DNA of 64,000 bases from Mustelus asterias (lineage: Eukaryota). Positions within the stretch are counted from its first letter, which is position 1. Each line of letters opens with the position of its first letter. Made by a program: the position numbers and the translations under genes. This document shows positions 19,043-55,392 of this stretch, in pieces. Below the pieces are notes generated by a model. The model had not been told where the DNA came from. It saw only the letters and a program-made list of their open reading frames with translations, and did no database searches. The stretch covers positions 34,534,001 through 34,598,000 of the forward strand of contig NC_135812.1 of the NCBI RefSeq assembly GCF_964213995.1, read 5' to 3'.

Positions 19043-19204
19043 ATGTGGAATGCTGGCGTTGGACTGGGGTAAGCACAGTAAGAAGTCTCACAACACTAGG
19101 TTAAAGTCCAACAGGTTTATTTGGAATCACAGCTTTCAGAGTGCTATGATTCACCTGATGAAGGAGCAGCGCCCCGAAAGCTCATGATTCCAAATAAACC
19201 TGTT
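19043..19204 (+). mobile_element. Penelope-like element terminal remnant (inverted repeat) with a hammerhead ribozyme core
   Basis: aacaggtttatttggaatca (19110) is inverted with tgattccaaataaacctgtt (ending 19204). CTGATGA at 19155 and GAAA at 19176. Confidence 0.7.
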
Positions 19205-25342: not shown

Positions 25343-25913
25343 GACATCACCATCTCTCAACCCCCTGAGGACCACCCCCTCTGAGGACCACCCCCTCTGA
25401 CCCAAACCACATCCCCTGACCAAAAAGACATCCCCCTCCCGACCAGATGCCTCCAACCTGAATCCCCCTGACTTAACCCTCATTACCTCTGTAACCCCGC
25501 CAACATCCAGATCCCTCTCACATGTCCAGATCCTCCCACTCATGTCCGGATTTCCCCCCCCCCCCACCCCCACCCTCGCTCCCCAGCGTCAGCTACCTCC
25601 ACATGCCTGGATCCCCTCTCCACGTCCAGATCCTCCCCATATCCAGAAACACACACCCCCCTTTTCACATCACCCTCAAGGGTCCAGATCTCCCCCCCCC
25701 CCACCCCACAATGTTCAGATCCCCCCATTTCCAGAACCACAACTACTCTTCATTCATCACCACCCCCCCACCCCACACTGAGGTTGGAGGCATCTGGTCG
25801 GGAGGGGGATGTCTTTTTGGTCAGGGGATGTGGTTTGGGTCAGAGGGGGTGGTCCTCAGAGGGGGTGGTCCTCAGAGGGGGTGGTCCTCAGGGGGTTGAG
25901 AGATGGTGATGTC
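25343..25913. repeat. Near-perfect inverted duplication (25343-25459 and 25781-25913)
   Basis: The right arm is the reverse complement of the left arm plus one extra 16-nt unit (ctctgaggaccacccc). Confidence 0.93.
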
Positions 25914-32810: not shown

Positions 32811-33574
32811 CAAAGAACAAAGAACAATACAGCACAGGAACAGGCCCTTCGGCCCTCCAAGCCCGTGCCACTCCCTGGTCCAAACTAGACCATTCTTTTG
32901 TATCCCTCCATTCTCACTCTGTTCATATGGCTATCTAGATAAGTCTTAAACGTTCCCAGTGTGTCCGCCTCCACCACCTTGCCTGGCAGTGCATTCCAGG
33001 CCCCCACCACCCTCTGTGTAAAATATGTCCTTCTGATATCTGTGTTAAACTTCCCCCCCTTCACCTTGAACCTATGACCCCTCGTGAACGTCACCACCGA
33101 CCTGGGGAAAAGCTTCCCACCGTTCACCCTATCTATGCCTTTCATAATTTTATACACCTCTATTAGGTCACCCCTCATCCTCCGTCTTTCCAGTGAGAAC
33201 AACCCCAGTTTACCCAATCTCTCCTCATAACTAAGCCCCTCCATACCAGGCAACATCCTGGTAAACCTCCTCTGTACTCTCTCCAAAGCCTCCACATCCT
33301 TCTGGTAGTGTGGCGACCAGAACTGGACGCAGTATTCCAAATGCGGCCGAACCAACGTTCTATACATCTGCAACATCAGACCCCAACTTTTATACTCTAT
33401 GCCCCGTCCTATAAAGGCAAGCATGCCATATGCCTTCTTCACCACCTTCTCCACCTGTGACGTCACCTTCAAGGATCTGTGGACTTGCACACCCAGGTCC
33501 CTCTGCGTATCTACACCCTTTATGGTTCTGCCATTTATCGTATAGCTCCTCCCTACATTATTTCTACCAAAATG
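32811..33574 (-). mobile_element. CR1 LINE 3' fragment, fused to the Gypsy integrase end
   Basis: ORF 32885-33490; tail (ttctttg)n at 32811-32826. Confidence 0.93.
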
Positions 33575-36094
33575 TTGGTGTGGAGGAGTTGGACCCTTTC
33601 GACCAGGGGGTCCGACTTATGGGTCCTCACGTGCTTCCGGAGCAGGACAGGGCCTGGGGACGTCAGCCACGACGGTAGTGAGGTCCCCGAGGGGGTCTTT
33701 CTGGGGAAAACAAACATTCTTTCATGAGGGGTAGCATTGGTAGCTGTGCAAAGGAGGTGATCTAATCGAGTGTAGTGCATCAAGGAGGACCTCTTGCCAG
33801 CGGGTGACTGGAAGACCTTTAGATCTCAGAGCTAGTAAAACGGCCTTCCAGACTGTCGCGTTCTCCCTCTCTACCTGTTCGTTCCCCCTGGGGTTGTAGC
33901 TGGTGGTCCTACTCGAGGCTATGCCTTTGGAGAGCAGGTACTGTTGCAGCTCATCACTCATAAAGGAGGATCCCCGGTCGCTATGGATATAGCTAGGGAA
34001 ACCAAACAGGGTGAAGAGGCTGTGCAGGGCCCTGACGACCATGGCTGAGGTCATATCCGGGCAGTGAATAACGAAAGGGAAATGTGAATATTCGTCAATG
34101 ATGTTGAGGAAGTATATGTTGCGGTCAGAAGAGGGGAGGGGGCCTTTGAAGTCGACGCTTAGGCGTTCGAAAGGGCGGGTGGCTTTTATGAGGTGAGCTC
34201 TGTCTGGCCGATAGAAGTGCGGCTTGCACTCTACGCAGACCTGGCAGTGTCTGGTTATAGACCTGACTTCCTCAATGGAGTAGGGCAGGTTACAGGCTTT
34301 AATGAAGTGAAAAAAACCTGGTGACGCCCGGGTGGCAGAGGTCGTTGTGGAGAGTCTGCAATTGGTCTATTTGTGCGCTGGCACATATTCCCCGGGACTG
34401 GGCGTCTGGGGACTCATTGAGCTTCCCGGGCCGGTATAAGATGTCGTAATTGTAGGTGGAAAGCTCAATATTTTATCATTTTTGATCTTGCCCCGCTGCG
34501 TGTTATTAAACATGAATGCAACTGACCGTTGGTCCGTGAGTAGGGTGAATCGTTTACCAGCGGAGTAGTGGCGCCAGTGCCATAAAGCCTCCTTTTCGAC
34601 AGAGGAGTGTCGAATTTCAGGGCCTTGGAGGGTTCGTGAGAAGAAGGCCACGGGTCTGCCCGCCTGGTTAAGGGTGGCGGCTAGGGCGATGTCAGACGCA
34701 TCACTCTCCACCTGGAACGGGATGGATTTGTCTACAGCGTGCATCGTGGCCTTCGCGATGTCTGCTTTGATGCAGTCGAAGGCCAGGCGGGCCTCTGCCG
34801 TCAGGGGAAAAGAGGTGGATTTGATGAGCGGACGGGCTTTATCCGCATAATTGGGGACTCACTGGGCGTAATACGAGAAGAAGCCCAGGCATCTCCTCAG
34901 TGCTTTGAGGCTGGTGGGGAGGGGAAGTTCCAGGAGGGGACGCATGCGGTCGGGATCGGGACCGATGACCCCGTTTTCCACAACACAACCAAGGATGGCG
35001 AGGCGGTGTGTGCGGAATACGCACTTCTCCTTATTATAGGTCAGATTTAGGAGTGTGGCGGCGTGGAGGAATTTGTGGAGGTTGGCGTCGTGGTCCTGCT
35101 GATCATGGCCGCAGATGGTGAAGTTATCCAGGTACGGGAAGGTGGCCCACAGCCCGTTCTGGTCTACCATTCGGTCCATCTCACGCTGGAAGACCGAGAC
35201 CCCATTGGTGATGCTGAAGGGGACCCTAAGGAAGTGATAGAGGCGGCCATCCACCTCGAAGGCAGTATATTGGCGGTCTTCCGGATGGATAGGGAGCTGG
35301 TAGAATGCAGATTTTAAGTCGATGGTGGAGAACACCCGATATTGCGCAATCTGATTAACCATGTCAGATATGCGGGGAAGGGGAACGCGTCCAGCTGCGT
35401 GTATCGGTTAATGGTCTGGCTGTAGTCAATGACCATGTGATGTTTCTCCCCAGTCTTAACAACTACTACTTGGGCTCTCCAGGGGCTGGTACTGGCCTCA
35501 ATGATCCCCTCCCCTAGGAGCCGTTGTACTTCGGACCTGATAAAAGCTCTGTCTCCAGCACTCTACCGTCTGCTCTTGGTGGCGATGGGCTTGCAATCGG
35601 GGGTGAGATTTTCAAACAGTGAGGGAGGGGTGACTTTAAGGGTCGGGAGGCTGCAGGTGGTGCGCGGTGGGCGATCTAAGAACTGCTGATTGCAAATAGA
35701 GAGCGGGGGAAAAGGCCCATTGTACTCCATGGTGACGCTCTTAAGGTGACACAGGAAATCTAGCCCCAGGAGTACGGCAGCGCAGAGTTGTGGCAGCACG
35801 AGGAGCCTGAAATTTTTGTACACTGTGCCCCGTACAGTCAGGGTCGCCATGCAGTACCCGAGGACATCCACCGAGTGGGACTTTGAAGCCATGGAGATCG
35901 TTTGCTTCACTGGCAGTACTGAAAGGGTGTCGCGACTCACTGTGTTAAGGTGGATAAAGCTCTCCGTACTCCCACAGTCAAATAAACAGTTTGTAGTGTG
36001 ACCGTTTACCTCGATGTCCATCATGGACCTGGCGAGTTGGTGAGGCCTGGACTGGTCCAGCGTAATCGAAGCCACCGTTGGATTTTGCGACGTG

Positions 36095-36340
36095 GCTGAC
36101 GGCGTCCAAGATGGCGGCCCGCATGGCTCACACGCAGCTGATGGCGTCCAAGATGGCGGCCCGCACGGCCCACATGCAGCTGAAGGCGTCCAAGATGGCG
36201 GCCCGCACGGCTCACACGCGGCTGATGGCGTCCAAGATGGCGGCCCGCATGGCCCACACGCGGCTGAAGGCATCCAAGATGGCGCTCGCACGACTCACAC
36301 ACGGCTACCGGCACCCAAGATGGCGGCTCCCGCGGGTCGC
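36095..36340 (-). repeat. 42-bp minisatellite (about 6 units) in the Gypsy gag-protease linker
   Basis: Unit encodes ACEPCGPPSWTPSA. caagatggcg occurs at 36107, 36149, 36191, 36233, 36275 and 36316. Confidence 0.95.
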
Positions 36341-36853
36341 ATGCGGCGCTACTGGGCTTGGAGGTCGATTTCGCCCTGCATACCTTCACGTAATGGCCCT
36401 TCTTTCCACACTCGGAGCAGATCGCATCCTTCGCCGGGCAGCGTTGACGGGGATGCTTCCCCAGGCCGCAGAAGTAGCACTTCGGGCCTCTGGAGACTGC
36501 CGCAGCGGTTGGGTACAGAGGTGGCGGCGACCGCGGTGTCCACGATGCACCCTCGTGGTCGGGGGTGAAGGCCTCGAGATTACAGAAGGCCACCTCTAAT
36601 GAGTCGGCAAGCGCCACAGTTTTTTGTAGGTCCAGCCCACCCTGTTCCAGCAGTCGTTGTTGGATATAGTTTGACCTGATACCCGTGACATAGGCATCTC
36701 TGATTAAGTCCTCACTGTTTTGGTGGCTGTTACGGCCTTGCAGTTGCAGGCCCTGCCAAGTGCTTGCAGGAATTGATCGCCTGATTCTCCCGGCTGTTGT
36801 CTGCGAGTAACCAGAAGATATCTGGCGTAGATTTCATTAGACTGTTTGTTGTA

Positions 36854-37986
36854 GAACAAAGAACAAAGAACAGTACAGCACAGGACACAGGCCCTTCGGC
36901 CCTCCAAGCCTGTGCCACTCCTTGGTCCAACTAGACCAATCGTTTGTATCCCTCCATTCCCAGGCTGCTCATGTGACTATCCAGGTAAGTCTTAAACGAT
37001 GTCAGTGTGTCTGCCTCCACCACCCTACTTGGCAGTGCATTCCAGGCCCCCACCACCCTCTGTGTAAAAAACATCCCTCTGATATCTGAGTTATACTTCG
37101 CCCCTCTCACCTTGAGCCCGTGACCCCTCGTGATCGTCACTTCTGATCTGGGAAAAAGCTTCCCACTATTCATAGAAATCATAGAAACCCTACAGTGCAG
37201 AAGGAGGCCATTCGGCCCATCGAGTCTGCACCGACCACAATCCCACCCAGGCCCTACCCCCACATATTTACCCGCTAATCCCTCTAACCTACACATCCCA
37301 GGACTCTAAGGGGCAATTTTTAACCTGGCCAATCAACCTAACCCGCACATCTTTGGACTGTGGGAGGAAACCGGAGCACCCGGAGGAAACCCACGCAGAC
37401 ACGAGGAGAATGTGCAAACTCCACACAGACAGTGACCCGAGCCGGGAATCGAACCCGGGACCCTGGAGCTGTGAAGCAGCAGTGCTAACCACTGTGCTAC
37501 CGTTCACCCTATCTATCCCCTTCATAATCTTGTACACCTCTATTAGATCTCCCCTCATTCTCCGTCTTTCCAGGGAGAACAACCCCAGTTTACCCAATCT
37601 CTCCTCATAGCTAAGACCCTCCATACCAGGCAACATCCTGGTAAACCTTCTCTGCACTCTCTCTAACGCCTCCACGTCCTTCTGGTAGTGCGGCGACCAG
37701 AACTGGACGCAGTACTCCAAAAGTGGCCTAACCAGCGTTCTATACAGCTGCATCATCAGACTCCAGCTTTTATACTCTATACCCCATCCTATAAAGGCAA
37801 GCATACCATATGCCTTCTTCACCACCTTCTCCACCTGTGTTGCCACCTTCAAGGATTTGTGGACTTGCACACCTAGGTCCCTTTGTGTTTCTATACTCTT
37901 GATGGCTCTGCCATTTATTGTATAACTCCTCCCTACATTATTTCTTCCAAAATGCATCACTTCGCATTTATCCGGATTAAATTCCA
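36854..37986 (-). mobile_element. CR1 3' fragment inserted into Gypsy gag, flanked by a TTGTA duplication
   Basis: ORF 37289-37987 (MEFNPDKCEVMHFG...). ttgta at 36849-36853 and 37987-37991. Confidence 0.92.
37169..37502 (-). mobile_element. HE1-type V-SINE nested in the CR1 that is nested in the Gypsy element
   Basis: Interrupts aagcttccca|ccgttcaccc, which is contiguous in the sister CR1 at about 33110-33130. Confidence 0.92.
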
Positions 37987-38248
37987 TTGTACTGGCCTTT
38001 TAGAAGTTCGATCGCATCCTTGTAAGTTTCAGCGTCTCTAATCATCGAGAATACTTGATCGCTTACCCGGGCGTGGAGCACGTGTAGCTTTTCGGTTTCG
38101 GTCTGGACGACGGAGGAGGAGGTGAGGAAAGTTTCGAAACAGCGCAGCCAATGATCGAAGCTGTTAGAGGCTCCTACAGCTTGAGGGTCCAGTTCTAATT
38201 TCTCGGGTTTTAGTATCTGCTCCATCCCAAAACTTTTGCTAATAAAAT

Positions 38249-38485
38249 TGATGCACCATCAATCAAGCAAAGACTCGTTTGTATGCAAGAACAAATAGGC
38301 TTTTATTAGCAAAAGACTTGGAGCAAACCCATGCCGATGAACTGGTTCAGAGACTGAGGCAGGGGGTGGGGAGCAGTCGCCTTTATACCTGGACCAGGGG
38401 GGGAGGAGTCCCAGGCAGGTCCAGCAGGGACGCGTCCAGGCATGTCACACACACACAGGCAATAAGCTAACAGTGGTTTACCACA
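38249..38485 (-). repeat. Gypsy 5' LTR (237 bp, TG...CA)
   Basis: The - strand starts TGTGGTAAACC and ends GGTGCATCA, with TATAAA at about 38387-38382 and AATAAA at 38307-38302. Confidence 0.85.
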
Positions 38486-45129: not shown

Positions 45130-48100
45130 TTACAACTGAAATACTCACAGGCCCTTTGGGTTCCTCCATGGGATGGAAGGGTAACTGGAGTGAGATCCAG
45201 AATCTCTCTTCCCCCCCCCCCCCCCCACCCCCATGGTGTTCACTGTCTGAACTATGGAGTGAACATCCTGCACCAAGGTCTCCACCCTCACAGTGTTGGC
45301 CTGGTTGCTGGCACCATTTCCTCAGACAGAAGGCGATGGGACTCCTCCAGTTGGCCTTGCACTCCGAGGAGGGACACTGCATCCCCTCCTGATGTTCGCA
45401 ATTCCGACTTTGCCACTCCAGCACTTGTAGGATGACTAAACCCAGGGCATGTCAGCCAACCAGGGCTCAGCAGAGCCCTGGAATCCGGCATCCCTCCGAG
45501 TGCCGGATCTCTGGGATGTCCTGCCCCTGCCTTCTGTGCATTAACAGAAATGAGGTACTCGCCAGTGAGTGAGCCGGAAAGCTGCCTGCTCATTATTCCT
45601 GCCAAGGTGTGAGTCTCTGAGCTGGCGGAGGGTGTGGGGGACAGCTGGCACATCTTCAATGAGAACATCTGCAAACTTGTCTTTGCAGCTGCGGTTCTTG
45701 GTGGTTTAGTGTCCGACTGAAGGATGGACCAGGCTGCTCGACTGATTCACCTGCGGAATAAGGGAGCTGGAATTAGTGCATGGCAGGGGCATAAGGATGG
45801 AGGAGAAATAACTCATGTGAGGCTAGCAGGATAGATGAATATGTGTCCACCTGCTCCCAGATCACCTTGAGTGTAGGAGCGGTCCAGTTCCTCCCCGCAA
45901 AGCTGGAGGGCTCTCTCAAATGGAGTTAGTACTTTCAGTTTGGTCGTTACTCCTCACACCTGTGCTCTCTCTTTATTGTGAGCCAGTTTGGGCACAGTGT
46001 CAATAGGATGTGTGCCGGGGCAGATGGTAAGGATGCCTGGCAGGTGTGGTTGGTAGGTGGGAGATGGGGTGAGATGGGGAGAGGAGCCGCAGAGGAAATG
46101 AGGCCTTGTGAGGGAGGGCGAGTGGTGGGGCCCCTTGGGGAGCAGCGGGTGAGCTCCCAGTGGGAGAGTTCCCAGTGGGTGTGTGAGTGGATGAGTGGTG
46201 TGTGATGGGTAAGTGGTGACAGATGAGAGGAGTTACTAACCCTGGCTGCACTCATTTTTTTCCCGCACTGGACGCCCGTCCTCCTGTGCAGGCTGCTGGC
46301 ACTGACCCGCACTGCCACTGACCAGTGTTGGCACTGACCCGCACTGCCTCTGACCAGTGTTGGCACTGACCCACACTGCCCCTGACCAGTGTTGGCACTG
46401 ACCCACACTGCCCCTGACCCACACTGCCCCTGACCCACACTGCCCCTGACCCACACTGCCCCTGACCCGCACTACCCCTGACCGGCACTACCCCTGACCC
46501 GCAATGCCCCTGACCAGTGTTGGCACTGACTAGCACTACCCCTGACCAGCACTGCCACTGACCAGCACTGCCACTGACCAGCACTGCCACTGACCAGCAC
46601 TGCCACTGACCTGCACTGCACCTAACCAGCACTGCCCTGGACCAGCACTAACACTGACCCACACTGCCACCGGCCCGTACTGCCACTGACCGGCACTGCC
46701 ATTGACCCTGACCCACACTGTCCCTGACCCGCACTGCCACTGACCAGCACTGCCACTAACCCGCACTGCCACTGACCAGCACTGCCACTGACCCGCACTG
46801 CCCCTAACCCGCACTGCCACAGACCAGCACAGCCCCTGACCCACACTGCCCCTGACCAGCACTGCCACTGACCAGCACTGCCCCTGACCAGCACTGCCCC
46901 TGACCAGCACTGCCACTGACAAGCACTGCCACTGACAAGCACTGCCACAGACCAGCACTGCCCCTCACCCGCACAGTACCTGACCAGCACTGCCCTTGAC
47001 CCGCACTGCCACTGACCCGCACTGCCACTGACCAGCACTGCCACTGAACAGCACAGCCACTGACCCAAACTGCAAATGACCAGCACTGCCCCTGACCCGC
47101 ACTGCCCCTGACCAGCACTGACCCTGAACAGCACTGTCCCTGACCAGCACTGCCACTGACCCGCACTGCCCCTGACCAGCACTCCCCCTGACCAGCACTG
47201 CCACTCACTGGAACTGCCACTGACCAGCACTGCCCCTGACCAGCACTGCCCCTGACCCGCACTGCCCCTGACCAGCACTGCCACTGACCAGCACTGCCAC
47301 TGACCAGCACTGCCCCTGACCAGCACTGCCCCTGACCAGCACTGCCCCTGACCCGCACTGCCCCTGACCAGCACTGCCACTGACCAGCACTGCCACTGAC
47401 AAGCACTGCCACTGACTAGCCCTGCCACTGACCAGCACTGCCCCTCACCCGCACAGTACCTGACCAGCACTGCCCTTGACCCGTACTGCCACTGACCCGC
47501 ACTGCCACTGACCAGCACTGCCACTGAACAGCACAGCCACTGACCCAAACTGCAACTGACCAGCACTGCCCCTGACCCGCACTGCCCCTGAACAGCACTG
47601 ACCCTGAACAGCACTGCCCCTGACCAGCACTGCCACTGACCCGCACTGCCCTAACCAGCACTGCCCCTGACCAGCACTGCCACTCACCCGCACTGCCACT
47701 GACCAGCACTGCCCCTGACCAGCACTGCCCCTGACCCGCACTGCCCCTGACCAGCACTCTCCTGACCCGCACTGCCCCTGACCCGCACTGTCCCTGACCC
47801 GCACTGCCCGTGACCAGCACTGCCCCTGCCCAGCACTGCCCCTGACCAGCACTCCCCTGACAAGCACTGCCACTGACCCGCACTGCCCCTGACCAGCACT
47901 GCCACTGACCAGCACTGCCCCTGACCAGTACTGCCCCTGACCAGTGCTCTCCTGACCAGCACTGCCCCTGACCAGCACTGCCCCTGACCAGCACTGCCCC
48001 TGACCAGCACTGCCACTGACCCGCACTGCCCCTGACCAGCACTGCCCCTGACCAGCACTGCCCCTGACCAGTACTGCCACTGATCCGCACTGCCCCTGAC

Positions 48101-51100
48101 CAGCACTGCCCCTGACCAGCACTGCCCCTGACCCGCACTGCCCCTGACCAGCACTGCCAGTGACCCGCACAACCACTGACCAGCACTGCCACTGACCCGC
48201 ACTGCCCCTGACCAGCACTGCTACTGACCAGCACTGCCACTGACCAGCACTGCCACTGACCCGCACTGCCCCTGACCAGCACTGCCCCTGACCAGCACGG
48301 TTACTGACCAGCACTGCCCCTGAACCGCACTGCCACTGACCAGCACTGCCCCTGATTCACATTGCCACTGACCAGCACTGCCCCTGACCAGCACTGCCCC
48401 TGACCAGCCAGGCCACTGACCCGCACTGCCCTTGACCAGCACTGTCACTGACCAGCACTGCCACTGACCATCACTGCCCCTGACCAGCACTGCCACTGAC
48501 CAGCATTGCCCTTGACCAGCACTGCCACTGACCCGCACTGCCCCTGACCAGCCCTGCCCCTGACCAGTACTGCCACTGATCCGCACTGCCCCTGACCAGC
48601 ACTGCCCCTGACCAGCACTGCCCCTGACTAGCACTGCCACTGACCCGCACTGCCCCTGACCAGCACTGCCCCTGACCAGCACTGCCCCTGACCCGCACTG
48701 CCCCTGACCAGCACTGCCCCTGACCAGCACTGCCATTGACCCGCACTGCCACTGACCAGCACTGCCACTGACCCTCACTGCCACTGACCAGCACTGCCAC
48801 TGACCCGCACTGCCCCTGACCAGCACTGCTACTGACCCGCACTGCCACTGACCAGCACTGCCACTGACCAGCGCTGCCACTGACCAGCACTGCCTCTGAC
48901 CCGCACTGCCCCTGACCAGCACTGCCCCTGACCAGCACGGTTACTGACCAGCACTGCCCCTGACCCGCACTGCCACTGACCAGCACTGCCCCTGACCAGC
49001 ACTGCCCCTGACCAGCACTGCCACTGACCCGCACTGCCCCTGACCAGCACTGCCACTGACCAGCACTGCCACTGACCATCACTGCCCCTGACCAGCACAA
49101 CCACTGACCCACACTGCCACCGGCCCGTACTGCCACTGACCAGCACTGCCATTGACCCTGACCCACACTGTCCCTGACCAGCACTGCCACTGACCAGCAC
49201 TGCCACTAACCCGCACTGCCACTGACCAGCACTGCCACTGACCCGCACTGCCCCTAGCCCGCACTGCCCCTGACCAGTACTGCCACTGATCCGCACTGCC
49301 CCTGACCAGCACTGCCCCTGACCAGCACTGCCACTGACCCGCACTGCCACTGACCCGCACAACCACTGACCAGCACTGCCACTGACCCGCACTGCCCCTG
49401 ACCAGCACTGCTACCGACCCGCACTGCTACTGACCCGCACTGCCACTGACCAGCACTGCCACTGACCAGCACTGCCACTGACCAGCACTGCCACTGACCC
49501 GCACTGCCCCTGACCAGCACGGTTACTGACCAGCACTGCCCCTGAACCGCACTGCCACTGACCAGCACTGCCACTGACCAGCACTGCCCCTGATCCACAT
49601 TGCCACTGACCAGCACTGCCCCTGACCAGCACCGCCCCTGACCAGCCATGCCACTGACCCGCACTGCCCTTGACCAGCACTGCCCCTGACCAGCACTGCC
49701 ACTGACCATCACTGCCCCTGACCATTACTGCCACTGACTAGCATTGCCCTTGACCAGCACTGCCACTGACCCGCACTGCCCCTGACCAGTACTGCCACTG
49801 ATCCGCACTGCCCCTGACCAGCACTGCCCCTGACCTTCACTGCCACTGACCCGCACTGCCCCTGACCAGCACTGCCCCTGACCAGCACTGCTATTGACCA
49901 GCACTGCCACTGACCAGCACTGCCCCTGTCCAGCACTGCCACTGACATGCACTGCCACTGACAAGCACTGCCACTGACCAGCACTGCACCTCACCCGCAC
50001 AGTACCTGACCAGCACTGCCCTTGACCCGCACTGCCACTGACCCAAACAGCCACTGACCAGCACTGCCCCTGACCCGCACTGCCCCTGACTAGCACTGAC
50101 CCTGAACAGCACTGCCCCTGGCCTGCACTGCCACTGACCCGCACTGCCACTGACCAGCACTGCCCCTGACCAGCACTGCCACTCACCCGCACTGCCACTG
50201 ACCAGCACTGCCCCTGACCCGCACTGCCCCTGACCCGCACTGCCCCTGACCAGCACTGCCCCTGACCAGCACTGCCGCTGACCAGCGCTGCCCCTGACCT
50301 GCACTGCCCCTGACCAGCACTCTCCTGACCCGCACTGCCCCTGACCAGCACTGCCCCTGACCAGCACTGCCCCTGACCAGCACTGCCACTGACCAGCACT
50401 CCCCAGACCAGCACTGCCACTGACCCGCACTGCCACTGACCAGCACTGCCACTGACCCGCACTGCCCCTGACCAGCACTGCCCCTGACCAGCACTGCCCC
50501 TGACCAGCACTGCCCCCGACCAGCGCTCTCCTGACCAGCACTGCCCCTGACCAGCACTGCCCCTGACCAGCACTGCCCCTGACCAGCACTGCCCCTGACC
50601 AGCACTGCATCTGACCAGCACTGCCACTGACCCGCACTGCCCCTGACCAGCACTGCCCCTGACCAGCACTGCCCCTGACCAGTACTACCACTGATCCGCC
50701 CAGCCCCTGACCAGCACTGCCCCTGACCAGCACTGCCACTGACCCGCACTGCCCCTGACCAGCACTGCACTGACCCACACTGCCACTGACCCGCAGTGCC
50801 CCTGACCAGCACTGCCACTGACCAGCACTGCCACTGACCAGCACTGCCACTGACCCGCACTGCCCCTGACCAGCACTGTCCCTGACCAGCACGGTTACTG
50901 ACCAGCACTGCCCCTGACCCACACTGCCACTGACCAGCACTGCTATTGACCAGCACTGCCACTGACCAGCACTGCCCCTGTCCAGCACTGCCACTGACCT
51001 GCACTGCCACTGACCAGCACTGCCCCTGACCAGCACTGCCCCTGACCAGCACTGCCCCTGACCAGCACTGCATCTGACCAGCACTGCCACTGACCCGCAC

Positions 51101-54100
51101 TGCCCCTGACCAGCACTGCCCCTGACCAGCACTGCCCCTGACCAGTACTACCACTGATCCGCCCAGCCCCTGACCAGCACTGCCCCTGACCAGCACTGCC
51201 CCTGACCAGCACTGCCCCTGACCAGCACTGCCCCTGACCAGCACTGCATCTGACCAGCACTGCCACTGACCCGCACTGCCCCTGACCAGCACTGCACTGA
51301 CCCACACTGCCACTGACCCGCAGTGCCCCTGACCAGCACTGCTACTGACCCGCACTGCCACTGACCAGCACTGCCACTGACCAGCACTGCCACTGACCAG
51401 CACTGCCACTGACCCGCACTGCCCCTGACCAGCACTGTCCCTGACCAGCACGGTTACTGACCAGCACTGCCCCTGACCCACACTGCCACTGACCAGCACT
51501 GCTATTGACCAGCACTGCCACTGACCAGCACTGCCCCTGTCCAGCACTGCCACTGACCTGCACTGCCACTGACAAGCACTGCCACTGACCAGCACTGCAC
51601 CTCACCCGCACAGTACCTGACCAGCACTGCCCTTGACCCGCACTGCCACTGACCCAAACAGCCACTGACCAGCACTGCCCCTGACCCGCACTGCCCCTGA
51701 CCAGCACTGACCCTGAACAGCACTGCCCCTGGCCAGCACTGCCACTGACCCGCACTGCCACTGACCAGCACTGCCCCTGACCAGCACTGCCACTCACCCG
51801 CACTGCCACTGACCAGCACTGCCCCTGACCCGCACTGCCCCTGACCCGCACTGCCCCTGACCAGAACTGCCCCTGACCTGCACTGCCGCTGACCAGCGCT
51901 GCCCCTGACCCGCACTGCCCCTGACCAGCACTCTCCTGACCCGCACTGCCCCTGACCAGCACTGCCCCTGACCAGCACTGCTCCTGACCAGCACTGCCCC
52001 TGACCAGCACTGCCACTGACCAGCACTCCCCAGACCAGCACTGCCACTGACCCGCACTGCCACTGACCAGCACTGCCACTGACCCGCACTGCCCCTGACC
52101 AGCACTGCCCCTGACCAGCACTGCCCCCGACCAGCGCTCTCCTGACCAGCACTGCCCCTGACCAGCACTGCCCCAGACCAGCACTGCCCCTGACCAGCAC
52201 TGCATCTGACCAGCACTGCCACTGACCCGCACTGCCCCTGACCTGCACTGCCCCTGACCAGCACTGCCCCTGACCAGTACTACCACTGATCCGCCCAGCC
52301 CCTGACCAGCACTGCCCCTGACCAGCACTGCCACTGACCCGCACTGCCCCTGACCAGCACTGCACTGACCCACACTGCCACTGACCAGCACTGCCACTGA
52401 CCAGCACTGCCACTGACCCGCACTGCCCCTGACCAGCACTGCCCCTGACCAGCACGGTTACTGACCAGCACTGCCCCTGACCCACACTGCCACTGACCAG
52501 CACTGCCACTGACCAGCACTGCCACTGACCAGCATTGCCGCTGACCAGCACTGCCCCTGACCAGCACTGCCCCTGACCAGCACTGCCCCTGACCCGCACT
52601 GCCCCTGACCAGCACTGCCTTGACCAGCACTACCACTGACCAGCACTACCACTGACCCGCACTGTCCCTGACCAGCCCTGCCACTGACCAGTGCTTCCAC
52701 TGACCAGCACTGCCACTGACCAGTGCTTCCAATGACCAGCACTACCACTGACACGCACTGCCCCTGACCAGCACTGCTACTGACCCGCACTGCCACTGAC
52801 CAGCACTGCCACTGACCAGCACTGCCTCTGACCCGCACTGCCCCTGACCAGCACTGCCCCTGACCAGCACGGTTACTGACCAGCCCTGCCCCTGACCCGC
52901 ACTGCCACTGACCAGCACTGCCACTGACCAGCACTGCCCCTGATCCACATTGCCACTGACCAGCACTGCCCCTGACCAGCACTGCCCCTGACCAGCACTG
53001 TCACTGACCCGCACTGCCCCTGACCATCACTGCCCCTGACCAGCACAAGCACTGACCCACACTGCCACCGGCCCGTACTGCCACTGACCGGCACTGCCAT
53101 TGACCCTGACCCACACTGTCCCTGACCCGCACTGCCACTGACCAGCACTGCCACTAACCCGCACTGCCACTGACCAGCACTGCCACTGACCCGCACTGCC
53201 CCTAGCCCGCACTGCCCCTGACCAGTACTGCCACTGATCCGCACTGCCCCTGACCAGCACTGCCCCTGACCAGCACTGCCCCTGACCCGCACTGCCCCTG
53301 ACCAGCACTGCCACTGACCTGCACAACCACTGACCAGCACTGCCACTGACCCGCACAACCACTGACCAGCACTGCCACTGACCCGCACTGCCCCTGACCA
53401 GCACTGCTACTGACCCGCACTGCCACTGACCAGCACTGCCACTGACCAGCACTGCCACTGACCAGCACTGCCACTGACCCGCACTGCCCCTGACCAGCAC
53501 TGCCCCTGACCAGCACGGTTACTGACCAGCACTGCCCCTGAACCGCACTGCCACTGACCAGCACTGCCACTGACCAGCACTGCTACTGACCAGCACTGCT
53601 ACTGACCTGCACTGCCACTGACCCACACTGCCACTGACCCACACTGCCACTGACCCACACTGCCACTGACCCACACTGCCACTGACCCGCTCTGCCAGTG
53701 CCCAGCACTGCCACTGAGCCTGACCCACACTGTCCCTGGCCCGCACTGCCATTGACCTGCACTCCCACTGACCCACACTGCCACTGATCAGCACTGCCCC
53801 TGACCAGCACTGCCTCTGACCAGCACTGCCCCTGACCTGCACTGCCCCTGACCAGCACTACCCCTGACCAGCACTGCCACTGACCTGCACTGCCCCTAAC
53901 CAGCACTGCCCCTGACCAGCACTGACCCTGAACAGCACTGCCACTGACCAGCACTGCCACTGACCAGCACTGCCCCTGAGCTGCATTGCCACTGGCCAGC
54001 ACTGCCTCTGACCAACACTGCCCCTGGCCAGCACTGCCACTGACCTGCACTGCCCCTGACCAGCACTGCCACTGACCAGCACTGCCCCTGACCAGCACTG

Positions 54101-55392
54101 CCCCTGACCAGCACTGCCCTGACCTGCACTGCCACTGACCAGCACTGCCACTGAACAGCACTGCCACTGATCAGCAATGACCCTGAACAGCACTGCCTCT
54201 GACCCACACTGCCACTGACCCGCACTGCCCTTGTCCCACACTGTCACTGACCAGCACTGCCTCTGACCAGCACTGCTCCTGGCCAGCACTGCCACTGACT
54301 CGCACTGGCACTGACCAGCTCTGCCCCTGACCAGCACTGCCACTGACCTGCACTGCCCCTGACCAGCACTGCCACTGACCTGCACTGCCACTGACCAGCA
54401 CTGCCCCTGACCAGCACTGCCACTGACCTGCACTGCCACTGACCAGCACTGCCCCTGACCAGCACTGCCACTGACCTGCACTGCCACTGACCAGCACTGC
54501 CACTGACCAGCACTCCCCTGACCAGCACTGCCACTGACCCGCACTGCCACTGACCCGCACTGCCATTGACCTGCACTGCCACTGACCTGCACTGCCACTG
54601 ATCAGCACTGCCACTGACCACCACTGGCACTGATCAGCACTGCCCCTGACCAGCACTACCACTGACCAGCACTACCACTGACCAGCACTGCCACTGACCC
54701 GCACTGTCACTGACCAGCCCTGCCACTGACCAGTGCTTCCACTGACCAGCACTGCCACTGACCAGCACTGCCACTGACCAGTGCTTCCACTGACCAGCAC
54801 TGTCCCTGACCAACACTGCCACTGACCAGTGCTTCCACTGACCCGCACTGCCACTGATTAGCCATGCCATTGACCAGTGTTTCCACTGACCAGCACTGAC
54901 CTTGACCAGTGCTTCCACTGACCAGCACTGCCACTGACCCGCACTGCCACTGACCAGCGCTGACCCTGACCAGCACTGCCCCTGACCAGTGCTGCCACTG
55001 ACCAGCACTGGCACTGACCGGTGCTGCCACCACTTCCCAGGCAGAGTGTGTGACCTCACTGGAAAGACTCTGGCCCATTTGAGGGTACAGCATATCACGC
55101 CTCTCCACCACTGTATCTAGCTCGCTCCTAGTACCCTGGCACTGGCTTCCTCGCTGCCATCCCCTTGGCTAGACTTTGAACAGGTGCCAGGGAGGTGTTT
55201 AACTGCAGCTTCTCCCTGACTGAGATGCCCAGTTGATGTCGGGCGGGTGAATCAGAGACATCTCACCCCAGGCATGGCGGGAATGTCAAGTGCCTAAAAA
55301 TACAGCAGGAGATCCCACCGACTGGGCTGGGGTGATTCTCTCCAGTTTTCTCCCCCAAAACGACACAACCAAAAGAAAGGAAAATTCTGCCC
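45130..55392 (-). mobile_element. PIF/Harbinger-type element carrying a decayed Myb/SANT accessory gene, split by a satellite
   Basis: N-half VERRDMLYPQMGQSLSSEVTHSAWEVVAAPVSAS (55111-55010); C-half VSASSLHRRTGVQCGKKMSAAR|gttagt (46310-46240); next exon KLAHNKE (about 45990). All are homologous to the + copy at 60080-61180. TIR-like gggcagaattttc at 55392-55380. Confidence 0.72.
46299..55020. repeat. 8.7-kb satellite of a 16-bp unit CTGACC(A/C)GCACTGCC(A/C), about 545 units, with higher-order duplication blocks
   Basis: Seen directly. The rare variant cacagtacc recurs at 46972, 47452 (+480), 49998 and 51609. Confidence 0.98.

Follow-up and report, generated by a model that had tools for sequence, protein, structure and literature searches.

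Pairing between the LTR and the primer-binding-site position of a Gypsy element in Mustelus asterias and its relatives suggests self-priming

We observed that a Ty3/gypsy element in the window (the whole 64,000-nt stretch of Mustelus asterias DNA analysed here) carries, at the primer-binding-site position, 15 bases that are a perfect complement of a segment of its own long terminal repeat (LTR; Table 1). On the minus strand, the sequence TTTTATTAGCAAAAG (38247-38233; hereafter the site) starts one base past the LTR, and its perfect 15-nt complement, CTTTTGCTAATAAAA (38315-38301; the arm), lies inside the LTR and ends in AATAAAA. This pairing keeps a fixed register one base past the terminal CA and covaries across the clade. 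We suggest that the site likely binds a primer cut from the element's own RNA, namely the 5' copy of the arm, rather than a tRNA (probability about 0.6).

Table 1. Positions of the element's features in the window.
Feature	Coordinates	Strand	Basis or remark
5' LTR, TG...CA	38249..38485	-	237 bp; read from sequence and sister copies
TATA box (TATAAA)	38382..38387	-	sequence
Initiator-like motif, predicted cap at A 38355	38353..38357	-	inferred from spacing
Outer stem, 5' side, predicted to pair over gag start codon	38319..38327	-	fold prediction
LTR arm, predicted self-primer	38301..38315	-	AATAAA at 38307-38302
RCCT motif directly after arm; predicted cut junction AAA^RCCT	38297..38300	-	cluster comparison
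One-base spacer (A) after terminal CA of LTR	38248..38248	-	A in 20/25 clusters
Primer-binding-site position, perfect complement of LTR arm, without TGG	38233..38247	-	
gag N-terminus from ATG 38225	37987..38225	-	
gag-breaking insertion: LINE 3' fragment and nested SINE-like repeat (~37311-37500)	36854..37986	-	
Remaining gag, two CCHC knuckles, frameshifted	36024..36853	-	
Aspartic protease	35752..36018	-	PF13975
Reverse transcriptase (YLDN) and RNase H, with frameshifts and stops	34487..35560	-	PF00078, PF17917, PF17919
Integrase, 3' end removed by second LINE fragment	33575..34366	-	PF00665

An initial annotation of this DNA had reported the 15-nt complementarity to an LTR segment containing AATAAA and a site that begins 1 nt past the terminal CA with no TGG start; both were confirmed. 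Because the sequence that the sister copies have in common stops at the CA, the 15-mer occupies the primer-binding-site position; these copies were also used to set the LTR end of the window copy, which has no 3' LTR. The reported YLDN reverse transcriptase (RT) and two zinc knuckles were both present, as was an integrase-last order. The window copy is decayed, with a split gag, frameshifts and stops in pol, and a 3' truncation; its polypurine tract (PPT) and 3' LTR are absent from the window. We take the LINE fragment inside gag to be CR1-like, and a Pfam search of a similar LINE fragment at 32888-33616 gave no match. The gag-protease linker contains a 42-nt tandem repeat (5.7 copies, 36090-36327) that encodes Pro/Cys-rich units and whose copy number seems variable between family members. 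Elsewhere, the window holds a GC-rich satellite at 46296-55030 (545 copies of a 16-bp unit, 84% matches), an inverted repeat at 25361-25879 with 99-nt arms of 99% identity and 321 nt between them, and a perfect inverted repeat of 20 nt with a loop of ~55 nt at 19110-19204.

A search of the same genome with the window element returned 3,697 candidates, 40 of which were scored. We found a second LTR behind a purine tract in 17 of 20 fetched stretches, in elements mostly ~4.3 kb long with 5-bp target duplications, and the 5-bp target-site duplication (TSD) matched in 21/22 LTR pairs of one sister family. The gag-PR-RT-RH-IN order between LTRs, the PPT and the TSD identify the element as Ty3/gypsy, and Ty3 Gag-Pol was the best PDB match. 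Among the protein matches listed, the closest named ones came from rays and sharks (73-82% identity), and many related proteins were 1,175-1,230 aa long. The element Cigr-1 is ~4.2 kb long and has 245-bp LTRs and one open reading frame of ~1,210 codons. This reading frame is near the protein lengths found here. Cigr-1/Mag-related Gypsy clades (GyDB; mollusc and annelid surveys) are non-chromoviral metazoan Gypsy, as the element here appears to be.

Named protein matches included those from cnidarians (Actinostola, Oculina, Xenia), crustaceans (Palaemon, Macrobrachium, Armadillidium), an aphid (Macrosiphum), a trematode (Paragonimus), a nematode (Trichuris), an echinoderm (Apostichopus) and cartilaginous fish, in a comparison of proteins. 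Metagenome contigs supplied 80 related loci, kept out of 345, and genome contigs supplied a further 13. Those 13 (L161-L173) are eukaryotic Gypsy sequence on contigs of prokaryotic genomes or metagenome assemblies, most likely host contamination. No relative was found on the viral contigs searched. In an RT tree, from which one short row was omitted, 28 rows formed one side of a 100/100 branch relative to an outgroup of only four other Gypsy rows. Two loci showed further features: L050 has two 5'-type LTR-plus-site copies 3.5 kb apart with an identical upstream flank, which is a local duplication, and at L182:360-690 (runs X3 and X4) the summed contig depth, which is not copy number, was far greater across the LTR than across gag, suggesting that solo LTRs are numerous.

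We examined 144 loci for covariation between arm and site. A gag start was found in 91; 9 of these lacked a callable junction or upstream DNA and were set aside, which left 82. These 82 loci form 28 gag clusters (6 from this genome, 22 from elsewhere), each represented by its first member. Scored as Watson-Crick pairs with one mismatch allowed, own LTR/site pairs had a mean of 13.4, compared to 6.1 for 756 foreign pairs, and the own site was the best partner of the LTR in 24/28 clusters. None of 100,000 permutations reached the observed pairing sum over the 28 clusters, a value that is optimistic because the clusters are related and two pairs are near-sisters. Shuffled LTRs attained 12 pairs in 1/1,400. 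The clusters that failed were three without pairing, namely L108 (contig too short), L131 and L140 (both long branches in the RT tree), and L163 (11 pairs). Arm and site also change together between the sister families of this genome. Five families of this genome supplied 161 distinct copies; 104 of them had a perfect 13-pair core, and compensated variants within families occurred as 4 single copies and as groups of 3 and 9. The compensatory covariation that the initial annotation had put forward as a check is thus seen both between clusters and within families. In the window, perfect inverted repeats of at least 15 nt with a loop of 30-80 nt number just one besides the arm/site pair. With 1.1e-7 chance matches of the 15-mer expected in the LTR and the permutation result across clusters, we rejected a chance origin. 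The arm/site pairing is a real, lineage-wide feature.

The anatomy of the helix was counted in the 25 clusters with at least 10/12 core pairs. Their 12-pair core (300 cells) comprised 294 Watson-Crick pairs, 6 mismatches and 0 G-U pairs, and these counts were unchanged when the choice of register permitted G-U. An RNA helix maintained by structural selection alone is expected to use G-U pairs, and a site recopied from its primer is not. The absence of G-U from the core therefore matches what recopying from the primer would produce. A small hairpin directly after the arm was present in 16/25 clusters (mean 7, maximum 13 in 300 shuffles) and had 15 G-U in 69 pairs. The arm ends in AAA in 24/25 clusters and is followed by RCCT (R in 23, C in 21, C in 20 and T in 20 of 25). 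The junction CA/N-TTT was almost invariant across the 25 clusters, a count that is partly circular because the junction rule demanded CA-N-T-x-T/A. The loop from the arm to the LTR end measured 23-69 bases. AATAAA or ATTAAA lay within the arm in 17/25 clusters; the arms of the other 8 had no canonical hexamer and carried variants such as GTTAAA instead.

We assessed the site for tRNA complementarity. None of the 25 scored clusters had a post-LTR site starting with TGG. Control Gypsy lineages from the same genome and contig sets had TGG sites, and in the two control lineages tested, complementarity to the own LTR did not exceed 7 nt. One control family (L244-L262) is young; its open reading frames reach 1,996 codons, and its TGG site matches tRNA-Thr(agt) over 11 nt. 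Against a partial set of 61 predicted tRNA sequences (14 anticodon types), the longest complement of the window-copy site was 7 nt, so the host-tRNA match that the initial annotation had named as counting against its reading was not found among these types. The longest tRNA complements in four sister families were 7-10 nt, the 10-nt ones deep in long predicted introns, and an Rfam search at the site returned no family with E below 2.4. A host tRNA fragment or other small RNA could still prime with the LTR complement being incidental, given that half-tRNA priming is known in some copia lineages (PMC6317226, accessible text) and that 14 anticodon types were compared. This is very improbable: the site varies by family and tracks the element's own LTR, and the tRNA and Rfam comparisons also argue against it.

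The predicted position of the arm in the transcript is internal. In 6/6 loci of this genome that were examined, an initiator-like YYAGT follows a TATA box at a spacing of 32-34 nt, and the distance from the predicted cap (at the A of the initiator) to the arm end varies from 50 to 74 nt among these loci. Because the predicted cap is upstream of the arm, the primer would be internal, unlike that of Tf1. TATA and initiator spacing thus agrees with the initial annotation, in which the paired segment was placed away from the cap site. The rows displayed for assembled contigs showed neither a poly(A) end nor a transcript start, which speaks neither for nor against the predicted cap. In the predicted leader of the window copy, the fold contains the 15-pair helix and, over the AUG, an outer stem (z of -2.4 for the 201-nt fold). 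Across the 25 clusters, the outer stem was favored for own pairs (mean -8.2 compared to -6.4 kcal/mol; 2/20,000 permutations). It was strongest in this genome and weak in many metagenome clusters.

These predictions also bear on a purely regulatory role, in which the helix would mask the 5' poly(A) signal (as well as the start codon of gag in the case of this genome) while another RNA primes. The hexamer in most arms, the presence of the complement behind the 5' LTR only, and the permutation support for the outer stem are consistent with such a role. HIV-1 offers a parallel, where a hairpin over AAUAAA represses 5' polyadenylation (PMC2645353, accessible text); the HIV-1 hairpin, however, occurs at both RNA ends and the virus uses a tRNA primer, whereas in this element the pairing partner is found beyond the LTR, at the primer site. 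A regulatory helix gives no reason for a start exactly one base past the LTR, or for zero G-U in 300 cells while the adjacent hairpin uses G-U. In addition, the hexamer is missing from the arm in 8/25 clusters, and no other primer site is evident. We regard regulation alone as improbable. The initial annotation had left self-priming, poly(A) hiding, or both as explanations. The sequence comparisons favor priming; masking cannot be general, because of the clusters with no canonical hexamer in the arm, and is a plausible second role.

Self-priming by the 5' arm would proceed as follows. Transcription would start ~55 bases upstream of the arm end, and folding of the leader would bring the arm into pairing with the site. 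Cleavage of the RNA at AAA^RCCT would follow, with the RNase H of the element as the probable enzyme by analogy with Tf1, and RT would extend the new 3' end through U5, over ~50 bases. The resulting short DNA would transfer to the 3' repeat via the stretch that runs from the cut to the poly(A) site. The primer would later be copied during plus-strand synthesis, so that the site is regenerated from the arm and the helix stays purely Watson-Crick. This helix would, in most families, additionally mask the poly(A) hexamer at the 5' LTR only; the start codon of gag would be covered by the outer stem in this genome.

Alternatively, the primer could be the arm copy in the 3' repeat, or one on a second packaged RNA, whose tail would be trimmed or cut back to the duplex so that the 3' end primes. 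Strong-stop DNA would then reach the cap and the whole R would be used for transfer. Within R, the arm appears to precede the predicted poly(A) site and would thus be present at both RNA ends. A 3' primer accounts equally for the covariation and the Watson-Crick purity, and it explains the retention of 35-60 bases upstream of the arm. We know of no precedent for priming by a 3'-repeat arm. Against it, only ~50 bases separate the 5' arm from the site, onto which the arm is predicted to fold with a probability of 0.61-1.0 per pair, and the conserved RCCT, together with the small hairpin that follows the arm, resembles a cut signal. We typed 108 LTR sequences of a sister family at 16 markers, a set meant to separate a 5' from a 3' primer. 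The haplotypes were mostly tree-like, with about one candidate recombinant per model. In one copy (L397/L495), A-type markers at -60 and -3 are combined with an R and U5 of B type, as a 3' primer would allow, but L495 differs at two U3 markers as well. Discordant shared markers in 20 LTR pairs (10 on 3 U3 markers, 17 on 7 cap-to-arm markers and 6 on 4 post-arm markers) were not enriched in R. Overall, we consider a 3' primer unlikely, although less so than a helix that is regulatory only.

The 5' and 3' LTRs of single insertions with a matching TSD often differed at subfamily markers (L071/L415, L064/L430, L388/L446, L058/L409 and L495). At least two marker differences separated the LTRs in 9/20 pairs, some of them at CpG-type sites. 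It is possible that these differences come from gene conversion or intermolecular plus-strand transfer.

We compared the element to known self-priming systems. Chromodomains and a Tf2-type SH3 domain were absent from 12/12 full-length proteins (no match to PF00385 or PF24626 at E up to 0.1), and the precomputed domains of the 120 protein matches listed included no chromodomain. On the chromodomain test, the element is therefore not Tf1/sushi, which supports the initial annotation on this point. Three chromodomain loci of this genome were tried as a chromovirus outgroup and set aside, since upon extension they gave no pol match, and SH3_Tf2 matches in this genome proved to belong to other elements. 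Tf1/Tf2 of Schizosaccharomyces pombe, Tj1, Tosmo1-3 and the Tf1/sushi chromoviruses share the Ty3/gypsy domain order and the lack of TGG (accessible text of PMC4600332, PMC7175516 and bioRxiv 10.1101/2022.12.06.519325); also shared with Tf1/sushi is a post-LTR site complementary to the 5' LTR in place of a tRNA site. In Tf1, the first 11 bases pair with the primer-binding site (PBS), with the RNase H cut falling between bases 11 and 12 (PMC7175516), and about half of the Tf1 cDNA carries a primer copy (PMC11042837), according to the accessible parts of these papers. The helix here mostly has 12-19 pairs compared to 11 in Tf1, and the arm is predicted to lie 35-60 bases inside the transcript, whereas the Tf1 primer is at the cap. 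Unlike in the Tf1 group, the arm usually contains the poly(A) hexamer. The flanking duplexes of the Tf1 pretzel use LTR sequence downstream of the primer, whereas the outer stem here uses sequence upstream of the arm, and a Tf1-type three-duplex pretzel was not seen in the predicted leader fold of the one copy folded (the window element). Self-priming here is likely a variant of the mechanism known from Tf1, with a different geometry.

Self-priming has likewise been predicted from LTR complementarity for TAR, Houba and Osr-1 (plant Ty1/copia) and for Tcn1 (PMC6317226). TAR, Houba and Osr-1 are outside the chromoviruses, as the element here appears to be on the chromodomain test, but belong to another superfamily. 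Tcn1 is of a chromovirus clade, the hosts of all four are plants or fungi, and the accessible text of PMC6317226 does not mention an overlap with AATAAA. Reports of self-priming in the accessible literature concern Tf1/sushi, Tcn1 and some lineages of plant copia. The accessible text of mollusc and annelid Gypsy surveys (PMC6238403 with four supplements, and PMC8556966) does not mention a PBS. We found no paper describing the arrangement in a non-chromoviral animal Gypsy in the literature outside Repbase and subscription journals, where prior mention is possible.

Demonstrated self-priming rests on Tf1, and the animal cases have so far been tied to sushi-type chromoviruses. As a tentative wider reading, which we hold to be somewhat less probable than not, an animal-wide non-chromoviral Gypsy clade may have independently evolved tRNA-free priming via an internal R segment that bears the poly(A) signal. 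A single helix would in that case control which poly(A) site is chosen, the translation of gag and the initiation of reverse transcription, and a trimmed RNA 3' end might even serve as primer. If self-priming is true, tRNA independence would have arisen a further time, in a separate clade and through an internal primer. Self-priming of this kind would predict a cut at AAA^RCCT and strong-stop DNA of ~25-70 bases, depending on the family, and would offer a natural way to suppress the 5' poly(A) site. Because such elements have no tRNA site, tRNA-based PBS finders would miss them.
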